Assembly: GCA_963695855.1 (NCBI GenBank)
Contig: CAVOHZ010000010.1
Location: forward strand, 1,664,001 to 1,728,000
Length of the DNA stretch: 64,000 nt
Direction of reading: 5' to 3'
From: an uncultured Nitrososphaerales archaeon
GTDB taxonomy: Archaea > Thermoproteota > Nitrososphaeria > Nitrososphaerales > Nitrososphaeraceae
The position numbers and the translations under genes are program-made. Shown here piece after piece: positions 13,952 to 39,156 of this stretch (position 1 is the stretch's first letter; every line of letters begins with the position of its first letter). The notes under the pieces are model-generated. The model was not told the DNA's origin. It searched no databases and saw only the letters and a program-made list of their open reading frames with translations.

Positions 13952-13987
13952 CGTGAATTGAATGGAGGGGATGGGATTCGAACCCAT
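13952..13987. repeat. att direct repeat, distal junction (36 bp)
   Basis: CGTGAATTGAATGGAGGGGATGGGATTCGAACCCAT identical to 39121..39156. Confidence 0.95.
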
Positions 13988-14354
13988 TCCTTGTATTCAC
14001 GGGTTTATACCGTATCGCTAGAGTAATAAAATTATATATATATAATTATATTTTGTTTGTTAATCATTATATTTTTTAGTAGATAGATAGAAACTCAAGA
14101 CTCTTACTCTTACTCCACAGTAACAATAGTACTAGAACCCAAAATATAGATTGTTCTAGACACTAATAAAGTTATTTTATGATAGAGACAAAAAAAATAA
14201 AATAAAGTTATTAAGTAATTGTAATAAAGTTAACAATCGAAAAGATCTAGAACAGTTGTGATCCGAAGTTTAAATAAGTCGATAGGCATTAGGTCAGCAT
14301 GGAGTTTGTATGTCATGACAATGGTTGGTAAGATGAACGAACACGCAAATAATC

Positions 14355-14603
14355 CTGGGTAAAAATTCTACTAGAGGATTAGATAGTTTAGATCTAGCAA
14401 GGTATATTTTAAAAGAGATAAAAGATAATGAAAATTACTTGGATATTAGTATTATTTCCAAACGATCGGACAATAACGAGAGATTTGTACGGTCTATAAC
14501 AGAATTTCTAAAAGAGATGGAATGGTTATCAGAAGATGAAAATGGAAAATATACAACTACGCAAGAGGGACTAAAAAACAATTTAGATAACCTGACATTT
14601 TGA
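14355..14603 (+). CDS. Small winged-helix protein (start uncertain)
   Basis: Open frame LDLARYILKEI..ITEFLKEMEWLSEDENGKYTTTQEG; no clear ATG. Confidence 0.5.
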   Translation: MGKNSTRGLDSLDLARYILKEIKDNENYLDISIISKRSDNNERFVRSITEFLKEMEWLSEDENGKYTTTQEGLKNNLDNLTF

Positions 14604-14670
14604 AAACTAAATATGAAAAGAAAAATAAAATTATATATATATAAAAATAAAGTAAATTTTAAATACTAAA

Positions 14671-14934
14671 TCAAATAGAATTGGAGGATTGAAGTTTTTC
14701 GTTTAGTTCATTTTCCAGGGTTGCAATCTGTCTATCCTTCAACCTTATCACCTGGTCCATGTCTAGCCGGTAGTCTTTCAGGTCCTGCCATTCTGCCAGA
14801 ACTCTAGAGACAAATCCATCCTGTGTTTCCCTTCTGCCCTTCAACCTTCCTATTACCTCTGCAGTATGTATTGATACGGCTAGCGTAGTAACCGGGGCTT
14901 TCTGGATTCTACGTCTTCCCATTTCTATCAACAA
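14671..14934 (-). CDS. RHH-like DNA-binding protein with coiled-coil tail
   Basis: TTLAVS..AEVIGRLKGRRETQDGFVSRVL pattern. Confidence 0.6.
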   Translation of the reverse strand: MLIEMGRRRIQKAPVTTLAVSIHTAEVIGRLKGRRETQDGFVSRVLAEWQDLKDYRLDMDQVIRLKDRQIATLENELNEKLQSSNSI

Positions 14935-14939
14935 AAAAA

Positions 14940-15344
14940 TTAGAAGGAATAGTCATCATCTTGGTAGGTTAGGCGCTGGGCCGTGTAGTCTATGGCCTCA
15001 ATTGTTTCTGCGGCCTTCGAACCTCGCTTAATGTGGAGCTCTTCCGGCAGGTGTTCAACCTCTTTCAATGTTCCCATTCTGATAGCATGTTCTATTGCAA
15101 AGATATGCTTGCACCTATCGGCTCTGTTGGACCCGTAATCCATACAACTACACCACTCGAAAACTGAAGGTTCAAATCTTACAAAGTAGTATCTATTATC
15201 TGTCGTTTCGGATTCTACGTAAAAGGTGTTTCTGTTTGACAGTTGGTACACTCTGCGGGATAGGCTGATAACGCGGCCCTTCTCGCTTCTTCTATTTTTT
15301 TTCTCTTTTGTTGATTCAACTATTTTAGAAACTGTTTGCGTCAT
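14940..15344 (-). CDS. SWIM zinc-finger protein
   Basis: FYVESE..Y.V..WCSCMD..RCKHIFAI. Confidence 0.85.
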   Translation of the reverse strand: MTQTVSKIVESTKEKKNRRSEKGRVISLSRRVYQLSNRNTFYVESETTDNRYYFVRFEPSVFEWCSCMDYGSNRADRCKHIFAIEHAIRMGTLKEVEHLPEELHIKRGSKAAETIEAIDYTAQRLTYQDDDYSF

Positions 15345-15425
15345 ATACGAATGTATACATTGATTTTGTTATATAAAGTATACTATCGTAAACAGATATA
15401 TACGAAAATGGTTATAAAATAAGAT

Positions 15426-17525: not shown

Positions 17526-20363
17526 ATGACAGATTTGTATCAAAATGTGAACCCTCGAGCATTTAATATGATGCTCAGTACAAATAGTAAATCACACATA
17601 CGAGTGATAGACAGTAATACTCCTGCTACCAGTAAGGTCAGAACTGAAGAAATCTTTTCATCTGAGGACCAGACAACCGATTATCTTTCTATCCAAGGAC
17701 TTAATACTAGATTCGGACTCGACGGAACTGGTTTTGAAATTTTCATAATAAAGGAAATGATGGATAACGCGCTAGACTATATTGAACAAAATGCACAAAA
17801 ATTTGCACAATTAAATGAAGGAATACCATTTATCGATGTAGTTGTTGCCGAAGAAAATGATGAAGTTGTAAAAATCATTGTTACAAATTCTAACGCAAGT
17901 AATGAAAATATATTTTCTGAGGACCAAATTCAGAAAATCTTTAATCTTAAAGAATACTACAGCAGCAAAAGATACAGGCATCAAATAAATCGTGGAGAGT
18001 TGGGTGATGCCTTCAAGGCCATATTATGCATTCCTTACGCCATTGCCGTCAATGATCACAGTAACATCTATGAAAACTGGGATTATCCGTTAAAGATCAA
18101 TATTTCCAATAAAAGACTAATTGAAGTTAAAATCGATAATTTCGATAAAATTAGAAAAAAGGAAAATGTACGGGTAAAGGCAGAGTTTAAACAAATTTCT
18201 GATGAAACTAAAAATCAATCCTATTTTACAGAAATCACCGTATATATTCCAAAAATCTCAGTAAATTATGATAAAATTAGGCAAATTCTAAAAAGATATG
18301 CAGTTATAAATACACATATTATTTTTGATTTCAAAATTCCAAGCAAAGAAACAGGTATATACGAATACAGTTGGTTCTTAACACAGAAACTAAAACGTGA
18401 TTGGAAAAATAGACTAAGTATATATTCTTATTCTTTACCAGATTTTAGAGATTTAATTCTCAGTATTAAAGATAGAGATGATCTAAATGTGTATGATGAT
18501 TTAATCAGACCACATTTTAGAGAAGGTGGATCACTTCCAAAAGAGGACCAATTTAAGACATTGGCCTATAAGGATTTAAAATCTGATATGAACAAAATCG
18601 AGGTTGTATACAATAAGTTAAAGAATAATCAAAGATCAATAAAACATCAATCCTCACGTCGTATTCCATTCCTGGACGTTCCTTTTGACATGGAGAAAAC
18701 ATCCAGAGAAAACGGGTTAAGAGTACGTCTACAACAGGTATATGATATTGACAAAGATAGTTTTGTGTATAAGAAATTTGATAGATGTTATTATGAAAAC
18801 CTAGAGAAAGGTGTAGAATTTCCGTATATGTTTGAAATTGCTATTGCAAAATCACCAATGTTTCCAAAGAAAAGATTGACATTAATTGAATCTTTAAATT
18901 GTTCTCCTGGCTTGTATTCTGATTCATTATTTCATGCGAATGAACCAATTTTTAACTGGACGCAAAAAAATGGACAAGTATGGAATGGATATAGTATTGC
19001 TGGGGTTCTCGAAAATTGCGGATATTCAGTTGAAAACGAAAAGAAACATAAGAAAATCCATAATCTAATTCTTATTAATTTAATATCTCCTAGAATAGAT
19101 TATAGTAGTCATAGTAAATCAAGTATCAAATTAGAGCCATTCGCTGAAATGACTCAGAAGGTTTACACTTTTTGTAAGGAATCACATAGAAAAAAAACCA
19201 GTGATGATAACACATTAAATAATATGCACTATTTAAGAATCATATTACAAGATCGATATTATGCTGTAAAGAACAATCCAATACTGAAAACACCAAAATA
19301 CAGATGGACTCAAAGCACCGTATACTATATTTTGAGAAAGATTCTTGATGAAAAAGGGATTCCAATTGCAGATAGAGATTACATTACTGGAGAAATCAAA
19401 GTTGAATGTGAACAATTAGGAATGCGATTAATAGAAATAGGCAGACCGCTTAAAAGACACGAATTGGGGATAATTGCAGCAGAAAGGGCACAACTGTTTT
19501 TTGATGGCCAGGCTCTAGGAATTAGTTTTGACCGAATAGAAGAGTTGATGAAAAAAGGAACGGATCTCCTAATTATAGAGAAAGAAGGTATAGCCGAAAT
19601 ATTCATGGAATTTGCAAATAAACGAGGGATTGCAATCTTAAACTCTCGTGGGTTTGTTACAGAATATGCAGAAGAATTATCAGAACTTGCTCAAAAAGAA
19701 GGATGCAATATCGCTATATTAACAGATTTAGATTCATCTGGATTGCTTATTTCATCCAAACTACCTAATGCTTATAGAATAGGTATTGACTTTAGGACAC
19801 TTCTTTATTTTGAGGATATAGAACAGGAGACTGTTGAGGAGCAAGTTACTAAAAAGAACAAGAACGAAAATGAGAACGAAAGTGATAGTCATTTATCAAA
19901 ATTAAAAGATCTGGCTAAATCAGAAATACCATTGCCTTACAGAAATAATCCTGAGGAATGGGAGGAGTTAATAGAATATCTGGATACTGGAATGCGTATA
20001 GAAATAGATAGTATTCGTACCCAACTTAATAACGATAATGAAAGATTTTGGGATTACATACTTAAAGAATTAGATAGAGAGTTCCCAACGAGGAATTATA
20101 ATAGAGCCATAGAGGTAAAGGAATATGTTATGCCAAAAATGATAGACGATTTTATTTCTGCTGTAGGAAATATATTGACCGAAGCGACTTCAGAAAAACG
20201 GGAGGAAATAATGAACGACTTGGCAAATACAGAACATTTCTTTGATGATATAAAAGTTGAAAGCGAAGAAATTGATGAACAACTAGGATCAGTTTCCGAA
20301 TCTGATGAAATTAAAAAGCAAATTGCTGAACAAGTTAAAAAGTTTTTGAAGTTTGAAGCATAA
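17526..20363 (+). CDS. Type IIB topoisomerase-like B-A fusion (Topo VIII-like)
   Basis: GHKL motifs IKEMMDNALD, YYSSK, RGELGDAFK, TEITV; candidate catalytic Tyr in WTQSTVYY; TOPRIM LIIEKEG, RGF, LTDLDSSG. Confidence 0.8.
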   Translation: MTDLYQNVNPRAFNMMLSTNSKSHIRVIDSNTPATSKVRTEEIFSSEDQTTDYLSIQGLNTRFGLDGTGFEIFIIKEMMDNALDYIEQNAQKFAQLNEGIPFIDVVVAEENDEVVKIIVTNSNASNENIFSEDQIQKIFNLKEYYSSKRYRHQINRGELGDAFKAILCIPYAIAVNDHSNIYENWDYPLKINISNKRLIEVKIDNFDKIRKKENVRVKAEFKQISDETKNQSYFTEITVYIPKISVNYDKIRQILKRYAVINTHIIFDFKIPSKETGIYEYSWFLTQKLKRDWKNRLSIYSYSLPDFRDLILSIKDRDDLNVYDDLIRPHFREGGSLPKEDQFKTLAYKDLKSDMNKIEVVYNKLKNNQRSIKHQSSRRIPFLDVPFDMEKTSRENGLRVRLQQVYDIDKDSFVYKKFDRCYYENLEKGVEFPYMFEIAIAKSPMFPKKRLTLIESLNCSPGLYSDSLFHANEPIFNWTQKNGQVWNGYSIAGVLENCGYSVENEKKHKKIHNLILINLISPRIDYSSHSKSSIKLEPFAEMTQKVYTFCKESHRKKTSDDNTLNNMHYLRIILQDRYYAVKNNPILKTPKYRWTQSTVYYILRKILDEKGIPIADRDYITGEIKVECEQLGMRLIEIGRPLKRHELGIIAAERAQLFFDGQALGISFDRIEELMKKGTDLLIIEKEGIAEIFMEFANKRGIAILNSRGFVTEYAEELSELAQKEGCNIAILTDLDSSGLLISSKLPNAYRIGIDFRTLLYFEDIEQETVEEQVTKKNKNENENESDSHLSKLKDLAKSEIPLPYRNNPEEWEELIEYLDTGMRIEIDSIRTQLNNDNERFWDYILKELDREFPTRNYNRAIEVKEYVMPKMIDDFISAVGNILTEATSEKREEIMNDLANTEHFFDDIKVESEEIDEQLGSVSESDEIKKQIAEQVKKFLKFEA

Positions 20364-21159: not shown

Positions 21160-21273
21160 ATGTCCAATAAGTGCAAGTGCTGGGTTTGCTCGTTTTTAAC
21201 TGAATGTGCGGACCAAAAAGTATATCAACAATCTACACACATGCAGAAAGTTCTAGGTAAGAAGAGGTCATGA
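21160..21273 (+). CDS. Tiny Cys-rich protein (37 aa)
   Basis: MSNKCKCWVCS..EC; ATGA overlap with the helicase start. Confidence 0.45.
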   Translation: MSNKCKCWVCSFLTECADQKVYQQSTHMQKVLGKKRS

Positions 21274-22751
21274 CTTCAACACCAGGAGGTTTTGATTCCG
21301 AATATACCAAAAACGCACATTACGATGTTTTTGGTACACGTATGGCTGATTTTAGTGATGCAAGAAAGAAAAAGCAGGAACTGATAGAGGACGGTACAAG
21401 ATTTGTCATGGCCCGACATATTTTTTTGACAGTTGAGGAAACAAAAGAAATTCTATACTATGACAAGGATAAAGGAGTTTATGTATCTGGGGGAGAACTA
21501 ATAATTGAAAAAGACCTAGAAGATATATTTGAATTTAAATTAAGAGTTGTAGACATATCAGAAATAAAAGGCCACATAATGAGGAAAACGTACGTAAAAA
21601 TGGAGGAATTTGATGCTGATCTTGATATTTTAAACATGAAAAACGGCCTATACAACTGGAGGACAAACAAATTGAAGCCACATACACCCGAATACTATTC
21701 TATGATACAGTGTGGTGTCAAATACGATTCCAGGGCAAAACCAAAATACTTTATGACATTCCTAAAGGAAGTTTTGTATGCTGAGAACATAAGAACAGCC
21801 TTGGAGATAATTGCATATACCTTCATACGTTTACATTTGTTTGAGTGCTACTTTATTTTAGTAGGCACCGGCTCTAACGGTAAGAGTGTGTTTGTAGGTG
21901 TGTTATGTGCTCTACACGGGAAGGATAATACCGCTAATGTCTCTTTGAAGGAACTGGTAGAAGACAGGTTTGCTCTTGCGGACCTAGTTGGAAAGAATGT
22001 AAATGTAGATACTGAACTATCAAGCAGCAGTATAAAGGATATGTCTATTCTCAAGAAACTTACAGGAAATCAACCGATAAGGGTACAGAAGAAAGGACAA
22101 CATGCCTTTGAGTCTGTGCTATGGGCCAAGCAGATATTTAACGCCAACCAGTTACCGGTAACAGATGATCATACAGACGCTCACTTTAGAAGAGAGATAA
22201 CGCTATCGTTCCCATATCAGTTCAAGGAAAAAAAAGATGATGATGATACTATAATAGGTACAGTAGAGGAGGATGAACCCAATGTCAAGACGGCAGATAT
22301 TCACATGTTAAAGAAACTTACAACCAAGAAAGAACTGTCAGGGATTTTCAACCTTGTAGCCAAGTCCATGAGGGCAATAGATCGCAATAAGAAGATATAT
22401 GCAGATTCTAAATCTATTGATGATAGAAGAGAAAAAGCGGAATTAACGAGGGACCCTATAGGTGCATTTGTCGATATCTGTAAGGTACAGCCAATAGCAC
22501 CAACATCAAACAGTTTTATGTTAAAAGAGGATCTCTACAAAATATTCAAGAATTTCTGTGAAGTGAAGAAGTTACATGTACCAAGTTATGGGGAATTTGC
22601 TGAAATAATGAGGAAAGAACACGGTTACAAAAATAAACGAAAGATGATACTTGGAAAGAAGGAAACTGTCTGGTATGTTGAGGTGAATAATCCAACTGGA
22701 GAAGAGGAAGTCGAAAGTGAAGATGTAGCAAATAACAACATAAACAACTAA
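21270..22751 (+). CDS. D5/P4-family SF3 helicase (no primase domain)
   Basis: LNMKNGLY..LKPHTPEYY (D5_N), Walker A GTGSNGKS, LKKLTG, NANQLP, AHFRR. Confidence 0.92.
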   Translation: MTSTPGGFDSEYTKNAHYDVFGTRMADFSDARKKKQELIEDGTRFVMARHIFLTVEETKEILYYDKDKGVYVSGGELIIEKDLEDIFEFKLRVVDISEIKGHIMRKTYVKMEEFDADLDILNMKNGLYNWRTNKLKPHTPEYYSMIQCGVKYDSRAKPKYFMTFLKEVLYAENIRTALEIIAYTFIRLHLFECYFILVGTGSNGKSVFVGVLCALHGKDNTANVSLKELVEDRFALADLVGKNVNVDTELSSSSIKDMSILKKLTGNQPIRVQKKGQHAFESVLWAKQIFNANQLPVTDDHTDAHFRREITLSFPYQFKEKKDDDDTIIGTVEEDEPNVKTADIHMLKKLTTKKELSGIFNLVAKSMRAIDRNKKIYADSKSIDDRREKAELTRDPIGAFVDICKVQPIAPTSNSFMLKEDLYKIFKNFCEVKKLHVPSYGEFAEIMRKEHGYKNKRKMILGKKETVWYVEVNNPTGEEEVESEDVANNNINN

Positions 22752-22798
22752 AAATATTTTTAATATCCTATTATTAACTAATTACTGATTGTTGTAAA

Positions 22799-23050
22799 GT
22801 GGCTAGAAGTAATATTCCAGGGATTGATAGCAGACTTACAAGGCTGGTAGATCCTTCATCAGAAGCAGCAGGTAGAACCATGCAACTAACAGCAGAGACT
22901 TATCAGGTATTGAAGGAACACGCATCTCGATATTATTCAAGTCCCCGTTATGATGAAGTGTTAGTTAATCTGGTAAAGTTCTACGAGGAGAAGGAGGGTC
23001 CAAAACACTACGCTCATTATAACAACGTCAATATTATGACGATTGATTGA
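22799..23050 (+). CDS. RHH-like small protein
   Basis: RTMQLTAETYQVLK..YDEVLVNLVKFYE. Confidence 0.6.
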   Translation: MARSNIPGIDSRLTRLVDPSSEAAGRTMQLTAETYQVLKEHASRYYSSPRYDEVLVNLVKFYEEKEGPKHYAHYNNVNIMTID

Positions 23051-23107
23051 TTAGTTATAATAATTAATTCAAAATAAATAAAAAAGAAAAAAAATTGATG
23101 ATTATAT

Positions 23108-23818
23108 TTAGGGCGGTCCTATAATGAATTCAACTCCTGCGTCTTCAAGACATTCTATCAAATCATCAACAACTTCTGGATCTACACCAGGTAGAGCCAA
23201 CCTGAAAGCATCTTCAGGAATGACTGATCCATCTTCAGGATTAACAAATAGTATACAAAATCGTTCGATCGATTCAACTCCAAATAGTTCTACAAAAGTG
23301 GTAATTTCGTCTGGAGATAGAAATTCTTCAAAACATTCTTCACATGTTCTTTGTGGAGTACTAGTTCTTATCTGTTCATTCACATTAACATTTACACATA
23401 TGTTTACAAGGTTTTTCTCGAAGTTTATTTTATCAAAGCCATTTTCATTTTGTGCGTTTGCTGCCTCTGGACCCGCTCCCTCATTTGTTGCTGCAGTAGC
23501 AGTAGTGTCTTCAGGTATTTGGGTAATATCTATTCCATTGACATTTATGTTACTGTTTACACAGGATATTTTCTGGATATCTCCATAACTCTTTTTTTGA
23601 TGGTTATTGTCATAACCGTACTTGTTGTCGTCTTGGTAATAGTAGTTGCTATTATATCCATATTGATCACCATAGTAGGAATGTCGATCGTCATCATAAC
23701 CTTCACTGCCATATGGCATTGCTTGTGCGTTTGTAATTGTTGATGGGTTTAGAGCCAGTATACTTGTCGCTAGTATTGCCCCTAGTATAGAAGCAAATAC
23801 TATCATTCTATTGCTCAT
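23108..23818 (-). CDS. Secreted/surface protein with Tyr/Asp-rich linker
   Basis: Signal peptide, YGYD-rich tract, KISCVNSNINVNG and NLVNICVNVN, acidic Cys-containing C-terminal domain. Confidence 0.8.
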   Translation of the reverse strand: MSNRMIVFASILGAILATSILALNPSTITNAQAMPYGSEGYDDDRHSYYGDQYGYNSNYYYQDDNKYGYDNNHQKKSYGDIQKISCVNSNINVNGIDITQIPEDTTATAATNEGAGPEAANAQNENGFDKINFEKNLVNICVNVNVNEQIRTSTPQRTCEECFEEFLSPDEITTFVELFGVESIERFCILFVNPEDGSVIPEDAFRLALPGVDPEVVDDLIECLEDAGVEFIIGPP

Positions 23819-24025
23819 TACATTGTTAAATGTGAATTTATTATATCTAAGGTTGGAAGGAACATTATCTAATCCTGTAATATTTTATCATGCTGAATTA
23901 TTGAATATAAGAAGAATAGCAATTGATCTACAAGTACAATATTAGATGTTATAATAATCTCAAGAATTCTGTTTTGTTAGTTTGTTAGTTAATTAATTAC
24001 CAAGAATTGGTACAAAAATAAAAAA
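23811..24025 (-). repeat. Upstream module copy 1 (near-identical to 25515..25730, partial copy at 25036..25143)
   Basis: Shared CATTACATT..AGGTTGGAAGGAACATTATCTAAT..CATGCTGAATTATTGAATATAAGAAGAATAG. Confidence 0.9.
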
Positions 24026-24031
24026 AGTGGA

Positions 24032-25042: not shown

Positions 25043-25143
25043 TACATTCTTAAATACGAATTTAATATATCTGAGGTTGGAAGGAACATTATCTAATGGT
25101 GTAATATTTTATCATGCTGAATTATTGAATATAAGAAGAATAG
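25036..25143 (-). repeat. Upstream module copy 2 (partial)
   Basis: ~108 bp matching 23812-23919. Confidence 0.85.
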
Positions 25144-25245
25144 AAAATGATATTTAGGTGGAAAGAAAGTGAAATCCTAGCATTACAGCAACCAATACAG
25201 GTCCACGAAAGACCCAAGATAAGAAATAATATCAGCATGACAAGC

Positions 25246-27879: not shown

Positions 27880-28092
27880 TCTGGTTGTTAATTACTACGA
27901 GTTTATATATTAATAAATGTTTTTAATACTAATGATTCATAAAAATTTCAATTCGATTCAAACGTATCATCGAGTTTGGCTGAAAAATAGAAAATCATTG
28001 ATGATAGGTATGCTGGCAACAATAGCATACCTTGTAAATTTAAGTACAAAATCGATGAAAAAATTAGAAGATGAATTTACTTCATTTCAAAA

Positions 28093-28350
28093 ATGGAGGC
28101 AATTTACTTGACTAGCAATAATTATCCAAATATCAAATGTCTCTATTGCGATGCAAGAATAGCAACTGGTTACCCACATTCATTCTATCACGCCTACAAA
28201 GAGCATCCTGAAAAGATAAGAGAAGTCTTTGAAAATGGATATAGATTGATACCCTTGGACATACGAAAGTTGATGGTAAAGGAACGAATGTATAAAATGT
28301 TTTTAGAAACATTGGAAGAAATTGATAAATGTGAAAAGGAACTGATGTAA
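28093..28350 (+). CDS. C2H2-like zinc-finger protein
   Basis: KCLYC..FYHAYKEHP. Confidence 0.65.
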   Translation: MEAIYLTSNNYPNIKCLYCDARIATGYPHSFYHAYKEHPEKIREVFENGYRLIPLDIRKLMVKERMYKMFLETLEEIDKCEKELM

Positions 28351-28448
28351 TAAATATGACTAAATTTTTAGATACAGATTATGATCATCTTTTTAGATGC
28401 GGTTATATGAAACAAAATAATTCAATTGTACAAGTGGAGGAATCTTAA

Positions 28449-29279: not shown

Positions 29280-30355
29280 CTAGCAATACTACTCATATAT
29301 GGAAATGTAGGCTTTGTCATAATAATTTTATTCCAAAAGATCTTAATTTATCACATCTTACAAGATCTGCACCAGTCTATTGTTCTATAGAATGTCGTAT
29401 TAAGGGTTCAAGAACACTTAAGACTATTCTTTGTGATAACCCTAATTGTGGCAAACCAATAAAAAGACAACCTAATCATATAAAAAGAAACAAGCATAAT
29501 TTTTGCAATAATTATTGCCATAAAATATGGCAACGAGAGAGTGGCTATATGGCCGGTGAACAAAATCCAGGATGGCTTGGAGGGCTTGACTGTCGTTATA
29601 GAGGGCCAAACTGGAATAAACAAAAACAAAAAGCATTAGAACAAGACAACTATACATGTCAAAAATGTGGTATTAAAAATGCAAATCTTGTAGTCCATCA
29701 TATAAGACCTTATCAATTATTTGATGATTGTATAAAAGCAAATGATCTGTCAAATCTAAGAACTTTATGTAAAAATTGTCATGGTATAGAGGAACATAAA
29801 TTTATTAAATCTAATCCCAATTTACTACAATTAAGAAGGATACCAAAGAATATTCCTCCTGTCAAAAAATGTATTAAGTGTAATAATATGTTTCAACCAT
29901 TGACCTATAAATCAAAGGCATGTGATAATTGTATGATAAGTAAATGTCTCAACTGTGCAAAAGATTATCGTGTAAAAGAATATTACAAGTTAAAAACTCA
30001 GAAATTCTGTAGTCCCCTCTGTGTATATAAATACTATAATAAGAAAGGTATCTGGCCAATTAGAAAGATAATACCATCTACTATAAAGAAGATGAAGATC
30101 TTGCGAGATCAAGGAATGTCATACAAAAAAATTGCAATTCAACTAGGGTTCAGTAAATATGCCGTTAGAAACAATTTGTTAAAATCCTTTGGTAGGAATG
30201 CTATTCAGTATTCTACTACTCATGTAGATAATACATTGATGGAGAAAATGCAAATACTAAGCAATCAAGGTCTTTCTACAAGAAATATTGCTACTCGATT
30301 AGGAATTGGCAAATCCACTGTTGCAAAATATTTAAAGAATCATAGGATGACATAG
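29276..30355 (+). CDS. HNH endonuclease with multiple Zn fingers and two C-terminal HTH motifs
   Basis: YTCQKCG..LVVHHIRP..NDLSNLRTLCKNCH; GMSYKKIAIQLG and GLSTRNIATRLGIGKSTV; ATGA overlap with the upstream gene. Confidence 0.88.
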   Translation: MTSNTTHIWKCRLCHNNFIPKDLNLSHLTRSAPVYCSIECRIKGSRTLKTILCDNPNCGKPIKRQPNHIKRNKHNFCNNYCHKIWQRESGYMAGEQNPGWLGGLDCRYRGPNWNKQKQKALEQDNYTCQKCGIKNANLVVHHIRPYQLFDDCIKANDLSNLRTLCKNCHGIEEHKFIKSNPNLLQLRRIPKNIPPVKKCIKCNNMFQPLTYKSKACDNCMISKCLNCAKDYRVKEYYKLKTQKFCSPLCVYKYYNKKGIWPIRKIIPSTIKKMKILRDQGMSYKKIAIQLGFSKYAVRNNLLKSFGRNAIQYSTTHVDNTLMEKMQILSNQGLSTRNIATRLGIGKSTVAKYLKNHRMT

Positions 30356-30659
30356 TAAATACTATAGAAGATGGATATTTTTAAATTACCTCGAGTTCTT
30401 TTATGATTTTTTTTGATTCGTCTTCTCCAATCTTTTAATACTTCCATATATACTCATGCCTATTAACTACATATCCTTTAACGAATTATTTAATATGGTC
30501 ATATTGGGATTTTATTGATAATGAATTACAATCAAGATTTAATTACCTTGATCCTTCTAATGAAGTCTTATTAAGTGTAATTTAGATATTTAATTATAAA
30601 CTGCAAATTATTTTATTAGAAAGAAGAATAAAATTAAAATACATAATGGTGATGCTTCC

Positions 30660-33600
30660 TTGAAAAATATCCGTGATTTTGAACGGGCAAGAGAATATGT
30701 AAGAACCTTAGGGATTAAAAGTGTAAACGGCTGGAAAAAATATTGGAAAAAGGAGCAAAAACCCGAAGATATACCTTACAATCCGGATAGGGAATATAAA
30801 AATAAAGGTTGGATGGGTTGGGGAGATTTTCTTGGAACAAAAAATGTTTCTTCCAAACAGGACTATTATTTACCTTTTGAAGATGCAAGAGAGTTTGTAA
30901 GAAAACGAGGACTGAAAACTTATGGCGAATGGCGTAAATATTGCACATCTAAAGAAAAGCCTGCAGATATTCCTTCAAAGCCTGAGGTTTACTACAAGAA
31001 TAAAGGTTGGATTGATTTTGGAGACTGGCTTGGAACAACTTATTTACCATTTGAACAGGCAAGAGAGTTTGTAAGAAAACTAGGACTGAGAAATCAAATT
31101 CAATGGCGTAAGTATTGTAAATCCCAAGAAAAACCAATTACAATACCATCTAATCCTGATAAGACATACAAAAATAAAGGTTGGACTGATTTTGGAGACT
31201 GGCTTGGAACATATGCTATAGCACCTCAAAAAAGAAAATTTTTACCTTTTGAAGATGCAAGAGATATTGTAAGAAAATTAGGACTGAATAATGTTGATGA
31301 ATATGAAAAATATCATAAAAAAAATAAACCAAAACAAATACCATATTCGCCTCAAAGATATTATAAAAATAAAGGATGGATTGATTTTGGAGACTGGCTT
31401 GGAACATATACTATAGCACCTCAAAAAAGGAAATATCGCCCATTCAATGAAGCACGATAGTTTGCTCGGTCGCTTAATCTAATTAGTTCAGCAAATTGGG
31501 ATGAATATGTGACAAAAAATGATTTACCTTCAGATATACCCAAAGCACCATACATAGTTTACAAAGAAGAATGGCAAGGATGGGGTGATTTCCTTGGAAC
31601 TGGAATAGTGGCTACGCAGGATGCAGGATGGTCTATAGAAAAAGTAAAAGAGTTGTTAAGAGATTTGATAAAAAATAAGGTAATTTACCAATGGAATGAA
31701 GATGCACGTCTTTACAAAGTCTTAATGACTAAAGGAGTATTAAATTTAAAAAGTGAGAATAGACATTCTAATTTTTTTAAAAACTTGAGACAAACTGTAA
31801 AAACAGAAGAAGGAAGAAAAATTATTGAGGAATATGCATTTTCACAAAGCAATGATATACCAGACTTATCCAATACATATTCAGAAAATAACGATGAAGA
31901 AATTCCAATAGCATCAAATGAAGAACTGATTAATTTAGTCAACGATAAAGAAGAGCCGTTAGACTATAAAGAGCCACCAACAGTTGAGCAGATTCTATCC
32001 ACTATCTGTATGCTTGAATCCATTAATGTAGACGAAGAAGCCATGCAGTTTTTTCTAAGGGGATCTGTAAATGATTTCTGGAAGAGAGCATTCAAAGAGG
32101 AGGAGAAAACTGTTTTATCTGTTCAACAAGAAGGAAAAAATGGACAGAAGTTTCATGATAGTGTTCTAGAAACTTTTCTGTCAGAGTATGAAAATACTAA
32201 GGAATTAAAGATTCCTAATGATTTCTCACCTGATCTCAAACCTACTCTTATGCAAAAATTTGTAGCATATAAAATTAGCATTTCCCCTTATTTTGGAAAC
32301 TTTTCCGGAACAGGTGCAGGAAAAACCCTTTCCGCGGTATTATCAAGTCGCATTATAGGTAGTAAAATGACTGTAATAGTTTGCCCAAATGATATAGTTA
32401 GACAATGGGAAGAAGAAGTTAGAAAAATGTTTTCGAATTCAAAAATATTAACTGAAAAAAAGGCATTTAATACAATACGTAATCAGAAGAAATATCAATA
32501 TATTATACTAAACTATGATAAATTTAACCAAAATGATTCAAGTGACAATATTCTTAAACTTATGCAACAAAAAATTGATCTAGTTATTTTGGATGAAATT
32601 CATTATACCAAAGTAACAACAGAGGAAAAGGCAAGTCTTAGAAATAAAAATCTTATTGGATTATTGACAGGTATCAGAAAGAAAAATCCTATAGCAAAGG
32701 TTTTAGGTATGTCAGCAACTCCTGTAGTTAACAATTTAACAGAAGGAAAATCCCTTTTAGAAATGATAACAGGAAAGATATATACCGACCTCAAAACTAA
32801 GGCTACTGTTCCAAATGCGGTTACTCTTTATGAAAAACTATCTACAATTGCTATTAGAGAATTACCTTCGTATAATATCAATACAGAAGAGGAATTTATA
32901 GAAGTTGATGCAGAACTGGACATTTCCACTAATAATCGAATTCTTTTAAAAAATCCCTTATCCACAGAACAGGTTTTAACAAAGGCTAGGATAAAAGAAA
33001 TAATAAATCATATTGATAAAGGGGGTTTTACAATTATTTATACAGAATATGTAGGAAAAGATATTATTAAAAATCTTTCAAACGCCATTAAGGATTTAGG
33101 ATTAAACTATGCAGTTCATACTGGTTCTGATCATACAGGGAAAAAACAATTTCAAGAAAAGAAGGCACAGGTATTGATTGCATCTAGTCCATTATCAATC
33201 GGTATAGATGGACTTCAAAAAGTTTGTAACAGACTAATAATAAATTCACTTCCTTGGACAAATGCAAGATACCAGCAACTTATTGGTCGCTTAGTTAGAC
33301 CAGGTCAGATACATAATAAAGTAAAAGTTGTAATAATATTGGCTTCATTAAAAATTAAGGAAAATAAATATGAATATGATCGTAGGAAATGGAATAGAAT
33401 ACAATATAAAAAAACTCTTGCAGATTGTGCAGTAGATGGTATATTACCAGAAAAAAATCTTGTGACTAGGGAACAGGCTCACAGGGAAGCCATACGATGG
33501 TTAGAAAGATTAGAGCGAGGTGAAATTTCTACAGTATCACGAAGAGACTTAGAAATAGAACTAACTCCAGCCGAAAAAAGACTCTTAATAAGAAAATATG

Positions 33601-34169
33601 GTGATATAACACTTCAGCATCAAAAAATGAACACAGAATACTCTTTTACAACTCATGAAAGAATGCAAAAAGATCCGCAGGAATGGCTTCAATATCATAG
33701 ACAATTAGATGAAAATAGGAAATTATGGCCTATTGATCCACTAGATGAAATCATAAGTAGATTAAAAACAATGTCACCGAGATTACGAATAGGTGATTTT
33801 GGCTGCGGAACAGCAAAAATTATGGAGGAAATAGGTTCTGATCGAGTAATTAGTTTTGATCATGTCGCAATAAATGATAAAGTCATAGAATGTGATATCA
33901 AATCAGTTTCTAAATATGTGGAAAACAATAGTCTAGATGTTATTATTTTTTCATTATCTTTAATGGGAAAAAATTGGCAAGACTATATTATTGAAGCCAA
34001 AAGATGCCTTTCGACAAGGAGTTCTCTTTTTATTGCAGTGACAACAAAAGAATTAGATGAAGGAAGAAGGCTACATTTACTTCCCAATGTTTTAAAGGAT
34101 AATGGCTTTTCTATTGATACTCAAGAAGAACGAGGAGATTTTACATTTATGGAAGGAATAAAAATTTAG
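30660..34169 (+). pseudogene. Integrase-repeat (INT_rpt-like) + SF2 helicase + Rrp8-like SAM methyltransferase fusion with one in-frame TAG at 31458-31460
   Basis: Five ~62-70-aa repeats (FE.AREFVRK.GL..W..GW.DFGDWLG); GTGAGKT, DEIH, SATP, QLIGR.VR; DFGCG, FSLSLMG; ORFs 30660 and 31509 share a frame. Confidence 0.85.
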
Positions 34170-34408
34170 ATAGTTCCTTTAATCATATTTGTGATTAAAT
34201 CATCATAAACAACAAATTTCTTTCATATTCTTTCTTTGACCTTATAGAATAGGAATCACCAAATATAATATCACATGTATTTGGCAATCAAATTGGAAAT
34301 TCGTAAATATCATTAATCCATTAACTTTTATAGAATTAGCAATTCCTTTAGATTATTTTGCTCGTTGTGATAATAATCCTTTAATTAATTCATCGTGATA
34401 CTAGGGTT

Positions 34409-34867
34409 ATGAGAATACTATTTCCGATAATGGTATTGTCTATCCTCATGGTTTCAGTAGGAATTTTTTCGACATCAATGAATTTTGTTTATTCTCAAAC
34501 TACAACTGAGGAGAAGAAGGTTGAACTATTGACTTCTAAAATTAAGGAAGGAGAATATTCTACAAAATTTATAGGACAAGTGCAAAACATGTTAACGGAA
34601 AATGTAGAATTTGTCAAAATTATTGCTACTTTTTATGATCAAAGTGGAAATATGATTGGTAGTAAGTCAACTTATGCTGAACCATATGATCTTCAACCGA
34701 AGATGAAGGCGCCATTTGAAATGTATTTGGATGACGATGTTCGAGATCAAGTAAATTCCTACGATGTCACAATAACATGGCAGAAACTGGAAGATACAGA
34801 AGATTTTTCTAATGTTTATGAATCCAGTCCTCAGTCTCAGTCACAAACAGAAGATTCACAAGATTGA
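34409..34867 (+). CDS. Secreted FxLYD-domain protein
   Basis: Signal peptide; GQVQN..FVKIIATFYD..G..APF. Confidence 0.8.
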   Translation: MRILFPIMVLSILMVSVGIFSTSMNFVYSQTTTEEKKVELLTSKIKEGEYSTKFIGQVQNMLTENVEFVKIIATFYDQSGNMIGSKSTYAEPYDLQPKMKAPFEMYLDDDVRDQVNSYDVTITWQKLEDTEDFSNVYESSPQSQSQTEDSQD

Positions 34868-35441
34868 AAAGAGGATCAAAATAGTGCTATTATTTTATTT
34901 GTTCACAATCATTATCGTTATTTCCATCAGTCATGCTTTTGCTCAGGAATTTAAGGAATATGAAAGTGAATTATTAAGTATCAAATTAAAGTATCCCTCT
35001 GATTGGGATGATAATATGAAAGAAGAAAAATCAACGATTTCAGAGGATAATCACCGTTCAATTTCTTTTGATTTAGGTGCAGAAAATGCCCTAAGAATAT
35101 ACATACATGATACAGACCCAGAAATTGGAAGTTTGAACAATTTCATTACCAACACATTGAATAGTGTTACGCTAGATGGAACTATGCCAATTGCTGTTCA
35201 TTTTCTAGAAACAGATTTAAACGTTACATTATCCAACCTACAGGCCATAAAATTAATTTACGATCGAAATCTTATGCTTGGAACCAATTCACGAATTGAT
35301 ACAATTATGCAAGTAGTTGCACTATCTGATGATAATAGTCAAACATATGGTGTAACTTATAGAACTGAAAAAGCATATTTTGAAGAATATTTAAAATCTG
35401 TAGAAGAAATTATAGAGTCTATAGAAATAGTCAATAAATAA
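34812..35441 (+). CDS. Secreted PsbP-like protein (start probably GTG 34884)
   Basis: AFAQEFKEYE..IKLKYPSDW..YL..VEEIIESIEI. Confidence 0.7.
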   Translation: MFMNPVLSLSHKQKIHKIEKRIKIVLLFYLFTIIIVISISHAFAQEFKEYESELLSIKLKYPSDWDDNMKEEKSTISEDNHRSISFDLGAENALRIYIHDTDPEIGSLNNFITNTLNSVTLDGTMPIAVHFLETDLNVTLSNLQAIKLIYDRNLMLGTNSRIDTIMQVVALSDDNSQTYGVTYRTEKAYFEEYLKSVEEIIESIEIVNK

Positions 35442-35539
35442 TTTTTATCGTTAATTAATAATTTTTATATCAATGATCTTACAACATACTATTTTTAGAG
35501 TCGTCAATTGATCTTATCAGGAAACCCTGACCAATTTTA

Positions 35540-36871
35540 TTATTGGTCATTAACAAATTTAACCCCTTTCAACAGCAAACGAAGGGCGTCCAAGTCATCG
35601 TTGTGGACACTCACATTTTTGTCAAGGTTCCATTCATTAGCGTGGGCAGTCTTTAGTGACAGGATTAATCGATCAAATTTGGAAGGTATAGCAAGTTTCT
35701 GTTTTGTTAAAAGTTGATATGTGTGTTCAAGCATTTGTTTATGTTCTTTTGCAAAGGATACAGGTATCACAAAGTTGGATTCAGGATTTATGTCTTCGGA
35801 GCGGTCCCAGTCTAAACTCTCACCAAATCTGGATTTACATTCATTAACAGCAGCCCGGTTACTTCCATCCACAAACCACCATAGATTAGGGATTTCAGTA
35901 TGTAGTTGAAATATACGATCACTGATTACAGAAGGAGTTGTTTTGTCATATTCCTCTCCTAGGACAATTTTAACTATTTCATTTTCTGTATCTAATTCTG
36001 CAATGTATATAGTTGTAATGGATGTAGAGAAGCCGAAATCAATCCCGCCGATATGAAGACAGTAATTATTTAATGGTAAATCCTTGTATTTTTCCCCTAG
36101 TTGTACCGCCCTCTCTATGTCTTCAATTGCAAAAACGTTCCCAATTTTTCCTAAATATTTTAAATCATATTCTCTATCAAATGAAGGACTTTGCTTTGCT
36201 CTCTCTATATCTTCAATAGTATAGATTTTATTCAAGCCATAACGATAATCTAACTTGATTCTTTTGTAAAGACATATATCTTCAGGTTCCTGTTCTATAG
36301 TCTGCATTAATCCTCCTGCTGCATTAGGTGTTGAAACCATAACGATAAAGGGATTAGATTTACCGATATATCTCTCGGCTACGGCCCTTACATCTTCCTG
36401 CTGACCCTTTGAAAAGAAATCGCATTCATCTAACAATATGAATTTAGGCGAATCGAGGGAACGAAAAGAGTCTACATGATGTGATGGGAATGATTCGATA
36501 GTTACACCATTTAGATTCAGTAAAGTCTCTTTAGTATCAAAGTAAATGCCTAATGGTTCAAACAATCGTTTCATTCTTGTTATTAACTTCTTACTAAGAT
36601 CCCAATTTGGTCCAGTAACGATAACAAACTGAGAACCTTGATAGTCATTATTACGCAGACATAACCAAGACATATATCTTAGGAATAATTCGGTAATACC
36701 TAATCCCGTACTCTTTAGAATCCAGATACATTTATCGTACTGCAACAAGTCAAGAACTATTTTCTCATAATCAAATAAGGCTTTACTAATTCCATCCTTT
36801 TTAGGTAGTCCCAATATATGATTAAAACAACAATTATTCATAGTTGCTATTTGTTCGTCATGATGCAGCAT
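35540..36871 (-). CDS. terL: Terminase large subunit (TerL)
   Basis: LFDYE, KSTGLGITE, ILLDE Walker B, STPN, FDREY; nuclease GIDFG, VDGS, HNDDLDALR. Confidence 0.88.
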   Translation of the reverse strand: MLHHDEQIATMNNCCFNHILGLPKKDGISKALFDYEKIVLDLLQYDKCIWILKSTGLGITELFLRYMSWLCLRNNDYQGSQFVIVTGPNWDLSKKLITRMKRLFEPLGIYFDTKETLLNLNGVTIESFPSHHVDSFRSLDSPKFILLDECDFFSKGQQEDVRAVAERYIGKSNPFIVMVSTPNAAGGLMQTIEQEPEDICLYKRIKLDYRYGLNKIYTIEDIERAKQSPSFDREYDLKYLGKIGNVFAIEDIERAVQLGEKYKDLPLNNYCLHIGGIDFGFSTSITTIYIAELDTENEIVKIVLGEEYDKTTPSVISDRIFQLHTEIPNLWWFVDGSNRAAVNECKSRFGESLDWDRSEDINPESNFVIPVSFAKEHKQMLEHTYQLLTKQKLAIPSKFDRLILSLKTAHANEWNLDKNVSVHNDDLDALRLLLKGVKFVNDQ

Positions 36872-37298
36872 GTTCTAGTTTTGCCTTTATCTGTGCTATG
36901 ACTGGCGTACCCAATGATAGTTCCTGCAACAGTTTAGCATTCTCTCTAATCTCATAACGTAACTTCTGGATTAAATCTAGATTCCTTCTTTCTGCAGGTT
37001 GTTTATTTTGTTCTATCAAGTAATCACGAATTGTATCCTTCTGGACCATCTCAACAACCTCGATTATTTGCTGATGCTTGATTACGAAGCCGACTCTTGA
37101 AAAATATGACATCCATTGATTGGCATACTCACCACTGTCAACCTCTTTTTTTCTACGATAATAGGTATGTGGTGATATAGGCCTACCCAGACGGGCCTTG
37201 ATGTAGGCTAATGCTTCCTTCTCTGTAAAGCCGTAATTTACGGTATCTGCTACAAGTGGCATTAAAACCTGTTTTTCCTTTTGTGTGAAATTTCCCAT
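36858..37298 (-). CDS. Putative terminase small subunit (HTH)
   Basis: Directly upstream of and overlapping terL; HTH-like GFTEKEALAYIK..ISPHTYYRRK followed by helical region. Confidence 0.6.
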   Translation of the reverse strand: MGNFTQKEKQVLMPLVADTVNYGFTEKEALAYIKARLGRPISPHTYYRRKKEVDSGEYANQWMSYFSRVGFVIKHQQIIEVVEMVQKDTIRDYLIEQNKQPAERRNLDLIQKLRYEIRENAKLLQELSLGTPVIAQIKAKLEHAAS

Positions 37299-37436
37299 TT
37301 ACTCGCTATTCACCTTGTAAATTGATAAATTGACTGCCAACTCTTAATAGTCGTATTTAGGTTAGTAACTATAATAAGTATAGTGGCTTCAACTACTAGG
37401 ACACAAACCATAGAACTAAGAAAAGAAAGTACAAAA

Positions 37437-37544
37437 GTGGACAGGTGGACACCTTGTACACCCCTAAATCCATTGTAATAATTTTTTCTTAAAATATTTT
37501 TTTCCAGTGAATATAGTGGTGTCCAAGGTGTCCAAGGTGTCCAA
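37437..37544. repeat. Inverted sets of 9-bp iterons flanking an AT-rich spacer
   Basis: (GGTGTCCAA)x3 at 37518-37544; degenerate inverse copies GTGGACAG, GTGGACACC, TTGTACACC at 37437-37462. Confidence 0.7.
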
Positions 37545-37551
37545 AATCTCT

Positions 37552-39063
37552 TTATTCATTATAATCTGATTTAGGAACATACATTCCATTATCGATAAAG
37601 TCATACGCTAGCCATTTCTTTTTGGTTTTTTTCTCCCGTTCTGTAACTGTTACCAATTTATCCATAGTATCCATAACCATTTTAACCTGCGATTTTAACG
37701 ATTCCACTTCTTCCTGCATTCCCTTTATCTGATTCTCTTTTTCTTTTTGGTTTTCTAACGTATATTGATATGAATGATAAGACAAAACCATTTTACATTT
37801 TACACAGAATTTTGAATCGTGTTTGTTTGATTCATTACAGTTAGGACAATACCTGGGTTTTAGTAATTCAATTCCTTCTGCTATTCCTTCATTTTCTTTT
37901 ATAATACCCTTGGCCTGCAGGATTGATCTTACTGACTCGTTACCAAAATAATGGATATACCTCTGTGGCATGTTGCTGTTAATACTCCAACCTGCATGAT
38001 TTCTAAGCATGTGTTCACTTAATTTCATTCTGGATTTTTCGGTTAATGCTGAGTGTCTGAATATATAGAGATTCCAAGGTTTTGTTAACATATTTCTGAT
38101 ATGGGATTTATCTGATTCTGGTATAGTCGTAGTGGTAGTTTTATCATCATTATTATGATTACTATCAAGTAGTTTACGAAAGAAACGATTGTATTTGTTT
38201 TTATATCTTTTTAATAATCCATTTACCAATAATTGATTTACAGAATTGGTATTTTTGTCACTTAAAGACACGAAAAACCATGAATCATGATTATCCCCAC
38301 ATGGATGATTTAACAACCATTCTTTTACATAAGGAATACTATCAATAAGTGGAAGGGTTCTTGGTCCAGTCTTACCGTTTACTGTAATTTCTGCATACTG
38401 TATTTCCTCTGATGAGATCTTAAATTTCAGGTCTTTTATCTTTAGATTAAGAAGTTCGTGAGGTCTGGCAGAAGTATCATTGGCCATTGCATGATAACAC
38501 CTATCTCTGATAGAAGGACAATATTTCAAAAATATAGCATGCTCTTCATTGGTCCACATATCCTCCGGCTTGTACGGTGATACTTCTTTCCTGGGAAGTT
38601 GTTTGATTCCCTGCATACAGTCAGGTGCATCCCTATTTTTGTGGTTCGTTTCATCTGGACTGTATAACCATTTGAAGAATTTCAGGAATAACATTTGTCT
38701 TGCATTCCATGTTCCTACACTCTTGTGAGTTGGGTCCACAGAAGAGGATTTTCTAAGGTTGTTTAGGTACTCCAGTATGTCGTCTTTAGTCATATCGTAA
38801 AAGGTTTTTTTATGTTCAAAGAATTTGGATAAATGTATCAGTATTTTTATTTTGGTTTCTTTTGTTGACTCTTTTATATTTAATTCGTTTTGTTCTGCAG
38901 TAATATAATCACATATTATTTTAACATTAAGAGGATTGGTCTGAACAAGTTCATTTAATCTTTTTGAGATGTAAGGTTTCAGGTATGTTGTAAGAGATTT
39001 TATTTTTCTTGTCAATTTTTCTTGTTCTTGTATTTCAATCGTTGTTGTTGTTGTTGCTCCCAT
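37552..39063 (-). CDS. int: Tyrosine integrase with C-terminal zinc ribbon and coiled coil
   Basis: DTSARPHEL (R), GKT (K), YIFRHS (R), HAGWS, QRYIH (Y); CPNC..CVKC; starts 57 bp from att. Confidence 0.93.
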   Translation of the reverse strand: MGATTTTTIEIQEQEKLTRKIKSLTTYLKPYISKRLNELVQTNPLNVKIICDYITAEQNELNIKESTKETKIKILIHLSKFFEHKKTFYDMTKDDILEYLNNLRKSSSVDPTHKSVGTWNARQMLFLKFFKWLYSPDETNHKNRDAPDCMQGIKQLPRKEVSPYKPEDMWTNEEHAIFLKYCPSIRDRCYHAMANDTSARPHELLNLKIKDLKFKISSEEIQYAEITVNGKTGPRTLPLIDSIPYVKEWLLNHPCGDNHDSWFFVSLSDKNTNSVNQLLVNGLLKRYKNKYNRFFRKLLDSNHNNDDKTTTTTIPESDKSHIRNMLTKPWNLYIFRHSALTEKSRMKLSEHMLRNHAGWSINSNMPQRYIHYFGNESVRSILQAKGIIKENEGIAEGIELLKPRYCPNCNESNKHDSKFCVKCKMVLSYHSYQYTLENQKEKENQIKGMQEEVESLKSQVKMVMDTMDKLVTVTEREKKTKKKWLAYDFIDNGMYVPKSDYNE

Positions 39064-39120
39064 CTTCTTGTGACTATTGGAAAGTTTGACGTCTTAAAAT
39101 AAAAACCTTAGTTATAAACC

Positions 39121-39156
39121 CGTGAATTGAATGGAGGGGATGGGATTCGAACCCAT
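39121..39156. repeat. att direct repeat, tRNA-proximal junction
   Basis: Identical to 13952..13987. Confidence 0.95.

Follow-up and report, generated by a model that had tools for sequence, protein, structure and literature searches.

The 64,000-nucleotide stretch of DNA analysed here (the window) carries, at positions 13952-39156, a 25,205-bp integrated element of a soil ammonia-oxidising archaeon. It encodes both subunits of a terminase, together with a tyrosine integrase and a predicted replication helicase, and no virion gene could be recognised. Our best reading, to which we give a probability of about one half, is that of a helper-dependent, satellite-like element that would enter the capsids of related viruses by means of its own terminase. 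The element would excise and replicate, its terminase would recognise and cut element DNA, and this DNA would then be pumped into the procapsids of a helper tailed virus. The element is a member of a large and mostly undescribed family of 10-25-kb integrative elements in soil ammonia-oxidising archaea, whose members appear to combine an integrase, a replication module of their own and the small and large terminase subunits (TerS and TerL), with no detectable portal, capsid, protease or tail genes. That these archaea host widespread satellites with a complete TerS-TerL pair and no capsid, which load their DNA into the procapsids of viruses with one type of portal (portal A, see below), is a wider proposal that we make tentatively, at somewhat short of even odds. 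The features that define the element are the following.

13952-13987: attL, left copy of a perfect 36-bp direct attachment (att) repeat, with the displaced 3' end of tRNA-Val
35540-36871, minus strand: TerL, large terminase subunit, 443 aa (PHROG, homology, alignment A1)
36858-37298, minus strand: TerS-like protein, family F7, 146 aa, with a 14-nt overlap with the TerL start (hidden Markov model, HMM)
37552-39063, minus strand: tyrosine integrase, 503 aa, with a C-terminal zinc ribbon, beside attR (Pfam, PHROG)
39121-39156: attR, right copy of the 36-bp repeat, made of the 3' 26 nt of the intact tRNA-Val and 10 nt downstream
39131-39207, minus strand: tRNA-Val(TAC), the integration target (ARAGORN)

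Element genes were called by Pfam and PHROG scans of 32 open reading frames (ORFs), supplemented with NCBIfam. The perfect att repeats and the intact integrase noted in an earlier reading of the sequence alone (the sequence-only reading) are both borne out. The last 24 nt of the repeat occur exactly twice in the 3.55-Mb genome, and a perfect repeat whose right copy completes the 3' end of tRNA-Val is what integration into a tRNA gene leaves behind. The region between the repeats is a genuine integrated mobile element, inserted by a tyrosine integrase into the 3' end of tRNA-Val(TAC). The integrase, an open frame throughout, has a tyrosine recombinase catalytic domain (Phage_integrase, PF00589, 2e-8, 34.6 bits for a cut-off of 27.1; phrog_1, 4e-20), a DZR match and a SAM-like N-terminal domain (Phage_int_SAM_4, PF13495, 25.9 bits, slightly below the cut-off of 27).

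TerL matches phrog_2 (1e-20). Among 50,697 phage records it has a single match, at 39.9% identity (E 5e-89), to the protein annotated as TerL in the Nitrososphaera provirus Pro-Nvie1; the TerL profile had no match among PDB sequences. All 47 positions that are identical throughout an 18-sequence alignment are preserved in the window TerL, among them K53/G56/G58, D148/E149 and D278, which we take to be the Walker A motif, the Walker B motif and the nuclease aspartate. The 146-aa ORF has no match to any library family (Pfam, PHROG, NCBIfam). An F7 model built with its paralogues matches the gene directly upstream of TerL at three other loci (loci are numbered L, genomes G and contigs C): L101 (1e-9), L128 (7e-15) and L104 (1e-24). 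A portal is carried by L101 and L128, and none was found on L104. Since the model finds the gene just upstream of TerL in the portal-bearing L101 and L128, we accept the 146-aa ORF as the probable small terminase subunit, by position and homology and not by fold. The TerS-like/TerL pair proposed earlier is thus confirmed directly for TerL and indirectly for TerS.

Both genes are under purifying selection. The ratio of non-synonymous to synonymous substitutions (dN/dS; Nei-Gojobori counts, own script) is 0.17 for TerL (dS 0.65; window against the 86% identical paralogue) and 0.10 for TerS against its nearest paralogue, more distant pairs being saturated. The neutral evolution of terL for which the sequence-only reading had suggested looking was not seen.

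The suggestion that the element belongs to a recurring family, and is not a one-off deleted provirus, holds more strongly than its first formulation. Contig C10 of the same genome has about 12 TerL loci, with 20 matches in all; four copies are full-length and free of stops, that of the window and three others, 86%, 75% and 46% identical to it. ORF clustering around these loci revealed a repeated module, composed of an ATPase of about 590-690 aa, a PriX-containing primase, TerS, TerL, the Zn-ribbon protein K7 (about 155 aa), the protein K6 (about 225 aa), small VapB/ribbon-helix-helix (RHH)-like and SWIM zinc finger proteins and a second type of tyrosine integrase. No virion family was found among the 39 proteins scanned from the paralogue loci of this genome. 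One locus of this genome (G000:C10:478547-485037, L018) holds an 828-aa frame that joins the N-terminal 310 or so residues of a TerL to unrelated sequence, with a classical TerS and an MCM helicase nearby.

Beyond this genome, TerL has 1525 homologues at E ≤ 1e-3 in a large protein collection, mostly unnamed; the few that are labelled come from Nitrososphaeraceae metagenome-assembled genomes (MAGs). Species-representative genomes contain 186 relatives, and the 80 loci kept are nearly all from Nitrososphaerales MAGs, often several per MAG. At E ≤ 1e-20, TerL is present in 96 of the 201 genomes of the window's family and in 16 of its 18 genera, a tally that takes in four unpublished genomes (G161, G077, G035 and G168). 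In a class-wide sample, it was found in 19/39 genomes of the window's family, as against 3/180 and 2/9 in two other families and 0/72 in the remaining twelve; two of the three matches in the family with 180 genomes (f2) come from the unpublished genomes G409 and G330. The replication modules of the elements differ: a P4-type primase-helicase in the window, and PriX primase with ATPase, or MCM, elsewhere.

The sequence-only reading had recognised no capsid, portal, protease, tail or conjugation ORF, and at the level of sequence matching this stands. None of these families was found with Pfam or PHROGs among the 32 element ORFs, and the window has no match to our own HMMs of portal A, portal B and the prohead protease. 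For the HK97-fold major capsid protein, there is no sequence match in the window or in its genome (Pfam, PHROGs, PF05065, own HMMs). The genome as a whole has no match to Phage_capsid (PF05065), Phage_portal (PF04860) or SPP1_portal (PF05133). PF06074 had no match either, but this negative carries no weight, as the control for that family matched nowhere. A search of it with 25 proteins of viral contigs, mostly head-module candidates, gave no portal or head match; a 139-aa K7-like ORF was the only match to the head-module region.

The same question was put to all TerL loci, using our own HMMs of two portal types (A and B) and two head markers in six-frame segments of at least 40 aa. The portal models match 1 of the 40 genome loci that have at least 5 kb downstream of TerL (L089), none of the 10 loci of the window's own genome, and 9 of the 10 viral-contig (IMG/VR) loci. 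Five of the nine (L101, L102, L105-L107) are the source sequences of the models, and L108, L109, L112 and L113 are independent. Portal A occurs in 2 of the 201 family genomes and portal B in 7, which belong to a single genus, so TerL is roughly ten times commoner than the matching portals in these genomes. The 178 representative flanking proteins were analysed by Pfam for the 75 largest, and by our own HMMs only for the other 103 (250-397 aa). Among the 75 there is a portal in L089 only; the others are host, integrase, replication (MCM, PolB, PriX primase, helicases) and defence (GmrSD, TIR, HerA, restriction enzymes, KAP NTPase) proteins.

IMG/VR contigs with more distant TerLs carry head genes: a minor head protein in L102, and major head proteins with a neck protein in L105 and L106. 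A portal is shared by L089, L105, L106 and L107, the copy of L089 matching Pfam Portal_Mu (8e-7). A protein of about 510 aa after TerL is common to L101 and L102; the L102 copy (506 aa) has a protein-atlas score of 0.98 to portal clusters, and the portal A profile had no match among PDB sequences. A marker first called 'mcpA', as a capsid protein, resembles a Mu-type prohead protease/scaffold in the atlas and was kept as a head-module marker only.

The position of the window TerL was examined in a FastTree phylogeny of 74 TerLs, for which segments had to match at least 380 profile positions and the duplicates L001-L008 and L119-L124 were dropped. The clade of the window TerL also includes its paralogues, L021, L028 (capsid-less) and L101 and L102 (both portal-bearing); the portal-B viruses form a separate clade. 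Another clade, of 31 rows, has no portal-bearing member, the flanks of 26 of the 31 being too short to judge. In a quick IQ-TREE analysis of 31 FastTree rows, rooted on the portal-B viruses, a clade of 25 rows includes 18 capsid-less loci, with three portal-A viruses nested at different places; the paralogues of the window's genome are labelled capsid-less in this tree because the whole genome is without portal matches. L102 is the sister of L028 with 99% support. The topology is consistent with packaging modules being shared or exchanged between satellites and their helpers, and also with head genes having been lost repeatedly.

As helpers, the portal-A viruses are the strongest candidates; they are represented by the contigs L101 and L102 and by proviruses in the genomes G140 and G003. 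They have the same type of TerS, a close TerL and the same K7, followed by the portal and head genes. The gene order in L101 is F7-type TerS, TerL, K7, portal and head genes, and in L102 K7 also stands between TerL and the portal. A homologue of K6 belongs to the head module of the G003 provirus, two genes after the prohead-protease-like marker, and in L091 K6 directly follows TerL.

Several observations weigh against the satellite reading. The portal-bearing L101, L102 and L128 nest in a mostly capsid-less TerL clade, which requires at least 4-5 changes between the virion-bearing and capsid-less states. K7 and K6 follow TerL in the nearest clade only (5/49 and 6/49 loci), and a TerS is recognised upstream of TerL in just 27 of 54 loci. 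About 8 of the 12 or so TerL loci of the genome are broken, being truncated or interrupted by stops, three paralogous loci have no att repeats of at least 14 nt and no tRNAs in the ranges tested, and the genome contains no portal-A virus that could act as helper. No excision product, circular form or encapsidated DNA has been observed, the four public read sets used giving short low-depth contigs only. Divergent capsid proteins can evade sequence methods, and structure was predicted for one protein (K6). In the window itself, about 110 nt are absent at the TerS/TerL junction, causing the in-frame loss of 36 N-terminal TerL residues relative to the paralogues. The lost segment is conserved, and 11 of the 18 homologues in the alignment have a PFW[IVL]W motif there; since 4 of the 18 begin at or past the start of the window TerL, the loss need not inactivate the protein.

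The nesting of portal-bearing viruses would also fit repeated loss of head genes, that is, degraded proviruses: leftovers of portal-A-type viruses without head and tail modules, whose terminase has no present function. The sequence-only reading had named head-tail modules beside the terL of the closest homologues as the mark of a simple deletion derivative, and this is partly seen, in that the portal-bearing L101, L102 and L128 belong to the same clade. The homologues of K7 and K6 inside complete proviruses, the many broken copies, the rearranged window copy (see below) and the likely relic NitKor-E1 (Krupovic et al. 2019, PMC6563490, as far as the accessible text goes) agree with such decay. 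Nonetheless, there is no debris of head genes in 39 of the 40 genome loci or in the 10 loci of the window's genome, even among six-frame segments of 40 aa or more, TerS and TerL are open and under selection, and the elements carry integrases and replication modules of plasmid or satellite type. The tenfold excess of TerL over portals and the 31-row clade without a portal-bearing member also argue against decay, which we consider unlikely, if the most serious of the alternatives. The satellite-like element with a complete terminase that was proposed from the sequence alone is supported in its recurrence, in the selection on its terminase and in its lack of virion genes, and weakened by its portal-bearing kin; the satellite mechanism is one that we infer.

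The element could also be an autonomous virus, if hypothetical proteins such as K6 or the cargo ORFs made up a new kind of capsid and portal. Numerous ORFs lack any match, and K6 has no known fold: its model (224 aa, mean pLDDT 75) is a five-stranded sheet with helices that matched no solved fold, with no Foldseek match at E ≤ 1e-3 and a best VIA Z of 3.6. Against this, the modelled K6 is a small sheet-plus-helix domain and is nearly deleted in the window copy, and the largest unassigned ORFs of the window are secreted, DNA-binding or nuclease-like by eye. The elements are just 10-25 kb long, much of it replication and cargo genes, and to our knowledge TerL motors occur only with portal-bearing HK97-type capsids. 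We regard an autonomous virus as very improbable.

The replication and other backbone genes lie in the left part of the element.

14671-15344, minus strand: two small backbone genes, F31 (87 aa) and F11 (134 aa; a paralogue has a SWIM zinc finger), common to paralogous elements
17526-20363, plus strand: 945-aa protein with a GHKL-like N-box and a C-terminal Toprim region (Pfam, PHROG, homologue alignment)
21270-22751, plus strand: D5-like superfamily 3 (SF3) helicase with a P4-family primase C-terminal region, cluster K4 (Pfam, NCBIfam)
22799-23050, plus strand: small protein F3, kept in paralogous elements (ORF clustering; a paralogue matches DUF7557/VapB-like, RHH)
23108-25042, minus strand: pair of paralogous F2 proteins, 236 and 336 aa long, whose N-termini resemble signal peptides; the family is multi-copy in the genome

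The SF3 helicase seen earlier is well founded, with matches to D5_N, DUF5906 and TIGR01613 (2.9e-46, above the curated cut-off); its cluster is present in 14 loci. By these matches it is the predicted replication protein of the element, a P4-type primase-helicase. The 945-aa gene had been called Topo VIII-like. Only weak matches were found (Toprim/DUF2399, 6e-3; a topoisomerase PHROG, 4e-4), and against solved structures in the PDB its profile retrieved Topo VI-B alone, at E 0.3. It has 53 unnamed homologues, and D80/N81/A82/D84 and E685-G688/D734/D736, which we take to be a GHKL-like N-box and a Toprim-like motif, are kept in 12 of them. The protein appears to be type IIB topoisomerase-like; its membership of Topo VIII, a single-chain type IIB enzyme that unites a GHKL ATPase, a transducer, a 5Y-CAP bearing the catalytic tyrosine and a Toprim domain, is unproven. 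The several RHH/AbrB regulators of the sequence-only reading were not confirmed: 12 small ORFs gave no significant Pfam match even at E ≤ 1, and only the paralogue of 22799-23050 matches DUF7557/VapB.

The F2 family (130-400 aa) is found in the window at 23108-25728, at C8:43780-45098 and in more than 20 other places of the genome, and every copy is preceded by a conserved stretch and by small ORFs. Over 217 nt, two of these preceding stretches in the window share 96% identity. Giant proteins at C10:15598-31993 also have matches to parts of F2. A fragment resembling a tRNA 3' end lies inside the element at 25246-25297 and is 79% like the element's own left end over 52 nt. It sits in a repeated F2/F6 unit that is also present on contig C8, and could be the mark of an old nested or recombined insertion.

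The window copy differs from its paralogues by a large block of cargo, which the sequence-only reading had not remarked on, any more than on the deletion in TerL. Comparison with the genome by blastn shows homology to the paralogues at 22742-25939 and 35530-37336, the sequence between being unique.

25697-25873, minus strand: K6/F16 remnant, the C-terminal 50 or so residues of the protein of about 225 aa that follows TerL in paralogues (HMM, 1e-17)
about 25940-35530: 9.6-kb cargo block, unique to the window copy (blastn against the genome; Pfam, PHROG, PADLOC)
within 25940-35530: wHTH (winged helix-turn-helix)-like 336-aa protein and PD-(D/E)xK-like 276-aa protein (by eye)
within 25940-35530: three proteins with signal- or transmembrane-like N-termini (by eye)
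29276-30355: HNH and helix-turn-helix protein (Pfam/PHROG)
30660-31460: four-repeat protein, 266 aa
31509-34169: SNF2 helicase fused to a methyltransferase (Pfam)

The block stands in place of K7, the small gene F26 and all of K6 except its last 50 or so residues. Because the cargo has replaced K7 and K6 and TerL has lost 36 residues, the packaging competence of the window copy is uncertain: it may be packaging-defective, even though the integrase, the att sites and TerS are intact and TerL keeps its conserved residues. The 266-aa protein consists of four repeats of about 60 aa, each ending in KNKGW.DFGDWLGT, and matches just two PHROGs of unknown function. A contig of the public read set X1 that joins 25461 to 34192, with 36 nt on one side, suggested a cargo-less variant and is too weak to claim one.

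With HNH and SNF2-methyltransferase genes in the window cargo, with GmrSD, TIR, HerA, restriction enzymes and KAP NTPase adjoining TerL in several loci, and with no helper in the genome, the terminase might have been repurposed. It would then serve the element or the host without virions, in an anti-packaging defence or in DNA processing for another route of transfer. PADLOC gave only generic HNH and SNF2 domain matches on the window element, and none of its models matches TerL or TerS. The TerS-TerL(-K7) arrangement is that of real viruses, and we know of no precedent for a terminase acting outside capsid packaging. Nor had a terminase been identified in non-viral elements, according to the accessible part of Krupovic et al. 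2019 (PMC6563490). We hold repurposing to be improbable. At one MAG locus (L034, 11460-20511), what looks like a defence island has been joined to the packaging pair: the genes directly after TerL code for GmrSD/HEPN, a HerA-like ATPase and a type I restriction subunit, and a ClpP-like SDH protease is encoded upstream of TerS.

On the satellite reading, bacterial satellites are among the closest known systems. P4, PICI/SaPI (phage-inducible chromosomal islands, including those of Staphylococcus aureus) and PLE (PICI-like element) satellites have an integrase and att sites at a conserved site, their own primase-helicase, a packaging gene of their own and cargo or defence genes, and no full virion module. 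The window element has the same layout, down to the TIGR01613 match in its P4-family primase C-terminal region; its host is archaeal and its dependence on a helper putative. As far as sequence can tell, it has an integrase with att repeats at a conserved site, its own primase-helicase and no complete set of virion genes. Of the marks of a complete tailed provirus, TerL is present and the portal is missing. Capsid-less satellites known to us carry TerS at most and use the TerL of the helper, and capsid-forming PICIs (cf-PICIs) carry TerS and TerL together with capsid and portal genes; the window element, unlike these bacterial satellites, has both terminase subunits without a capsid.

Putative archaeal virus satellites have been reported from haloarchaea, nanohaloarchaea and an Asgard enrichment (bioRxiv 10.1101/2025.02.15.638363 and 10.64898/2026.08.12.739948). 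Like the window element, they are small and proposed to depend on a helper virus. In the accessible text of these preprints, no terminase is reported for them, and the terminase passages of the haloarchaeal one concern viruses only. In the accessible parts of the full-text literature, the satellite preprints and the provirus surveys, we found no capsid-less TerS-TerL family described for these archaea, a point on which supplementary files may also bear.

The nearest archaeal precedent is the cryptic element NitKor-E1, which is integrated in Ca. Nitrosopumilus koreensis AR1 and has TerS, TerL and integrase only. The available sections of Krupovic et al. 2019 (PMC6563490) call its terminase enigmatic, since terminases were known only in viruses, and likely a relic. 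Like NitKor-E1, the window element is thaumarchaeal and has a tyrosine integrase with an adjacent TerS-TerL pair and no other tailed-virus gene. Going by the published description in those sections, NitKor-E1 differs in being a single case from another family, whereas the window element belongs to a family-wide, multi-copy lineage with candidate helpers; the TerL of the window type is rare in the probable family of NitKor-E1 (f2 above, probably Nitrosopumilaceae). Pro-Nvie1 (FR725450.1) comes from the same host family as the window element and is the provirus whose TerL resembles that of the window. The genes that follow TerL in Pro-Nvie1 code for portal, protease/major capsid protein, tail tube, tape measure and baseplate, whereas the window element has none of these.

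The combination of an integrase and a TerS-TerL pair without a capsid is common, conserved and under selection in one archaeal family, which would explain NitKor-E1, and concrete candidate helper viruses make the satellite question testable. If the satellite reading is right, these elements follow a new satellite strategy, the first for ammonia-oxidising archaea, in which the packaging motor is brought along and the shell alone is stolen. Most of the TerL-bearing 'proviruses' counted in these genomes would then be hyperparasites of viruses, and not viruses. Surveys that take the terminase as a hallmark of proviruses, as far as the accessible ones indicate, may overcount viruses in these globally important nitrifiers.

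To the left of the element, where a decayed TerS-like gene and integrase had already been noticed, K6 and K7 remnants were found in addition to these two.

789-1145, minus strand: remnant of a classical (K2-type) small terminase gene (HMM, 1.2e-19)
3365-13951: older decayed tandem element of the same family (repeats, remnants)
3365-3416: tRNA-like left end of the older element, resembling the element's left end beyond the tRNA part
5786-6315: insertion sequence (IS) fragment, at the expected position of TerL
6830-7057, plus strand: K7/F13 remnant
9118-9683, plus strand: K6 remnant
11793-12621, minus strand: integrase remnant of the same type

The K7/F13, K6 and integrase remnants lie in the expected order, with IS fragments at the position of TerL. 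Just left of the tRNA-like fragment at 3365 there is a direct-repeat array (2940-3300), with 39-nt and 99-nt repeats in six copies spaced by 38-65 nt, which looks like iterons or arm-type binding sites of the old element. In a single open frame at 10252-11214 (minus strand), an N-terminal piece that resembles an integrase is fused with an HSP20/alpha-crystallin domain (Pfam, 3e-11); the frame is probably a chimera produced by the decay of the older element.

The tRNA-Val site itself is not always filled. The locus formed by tRNA-Val and the serine hydroxymethyltransferase gene is conserved in 24 genomes of the same genus, the contigs of several MAGs stopping at the tRNA. An integrase of the same type adjoins tRNA-Val in four same-genus genomes (G138, G122, G112 and G048, the last with a TerS fragment), and G012, also of this genus, has none within 20 kb of it. 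Occupancy of the site therefore varies among genomes of the genus. The window has a G+C content of 30.5%. From 40199 rightwards it contains core archaeal genes, coding for serine hydroxymethyltransferase, both PolD subunits, Cdc6, CdvA, ThyX and FEN1. The element lies about 10 kb from the cdc6 and PolD genes, and a pair of 49-nt repeats is found upstream of cdc6 at 48333-48441 (region 48333-51568); these repeats and the closeness to cdc6 and PolD suggest that the insertion site may be near a replication origin.

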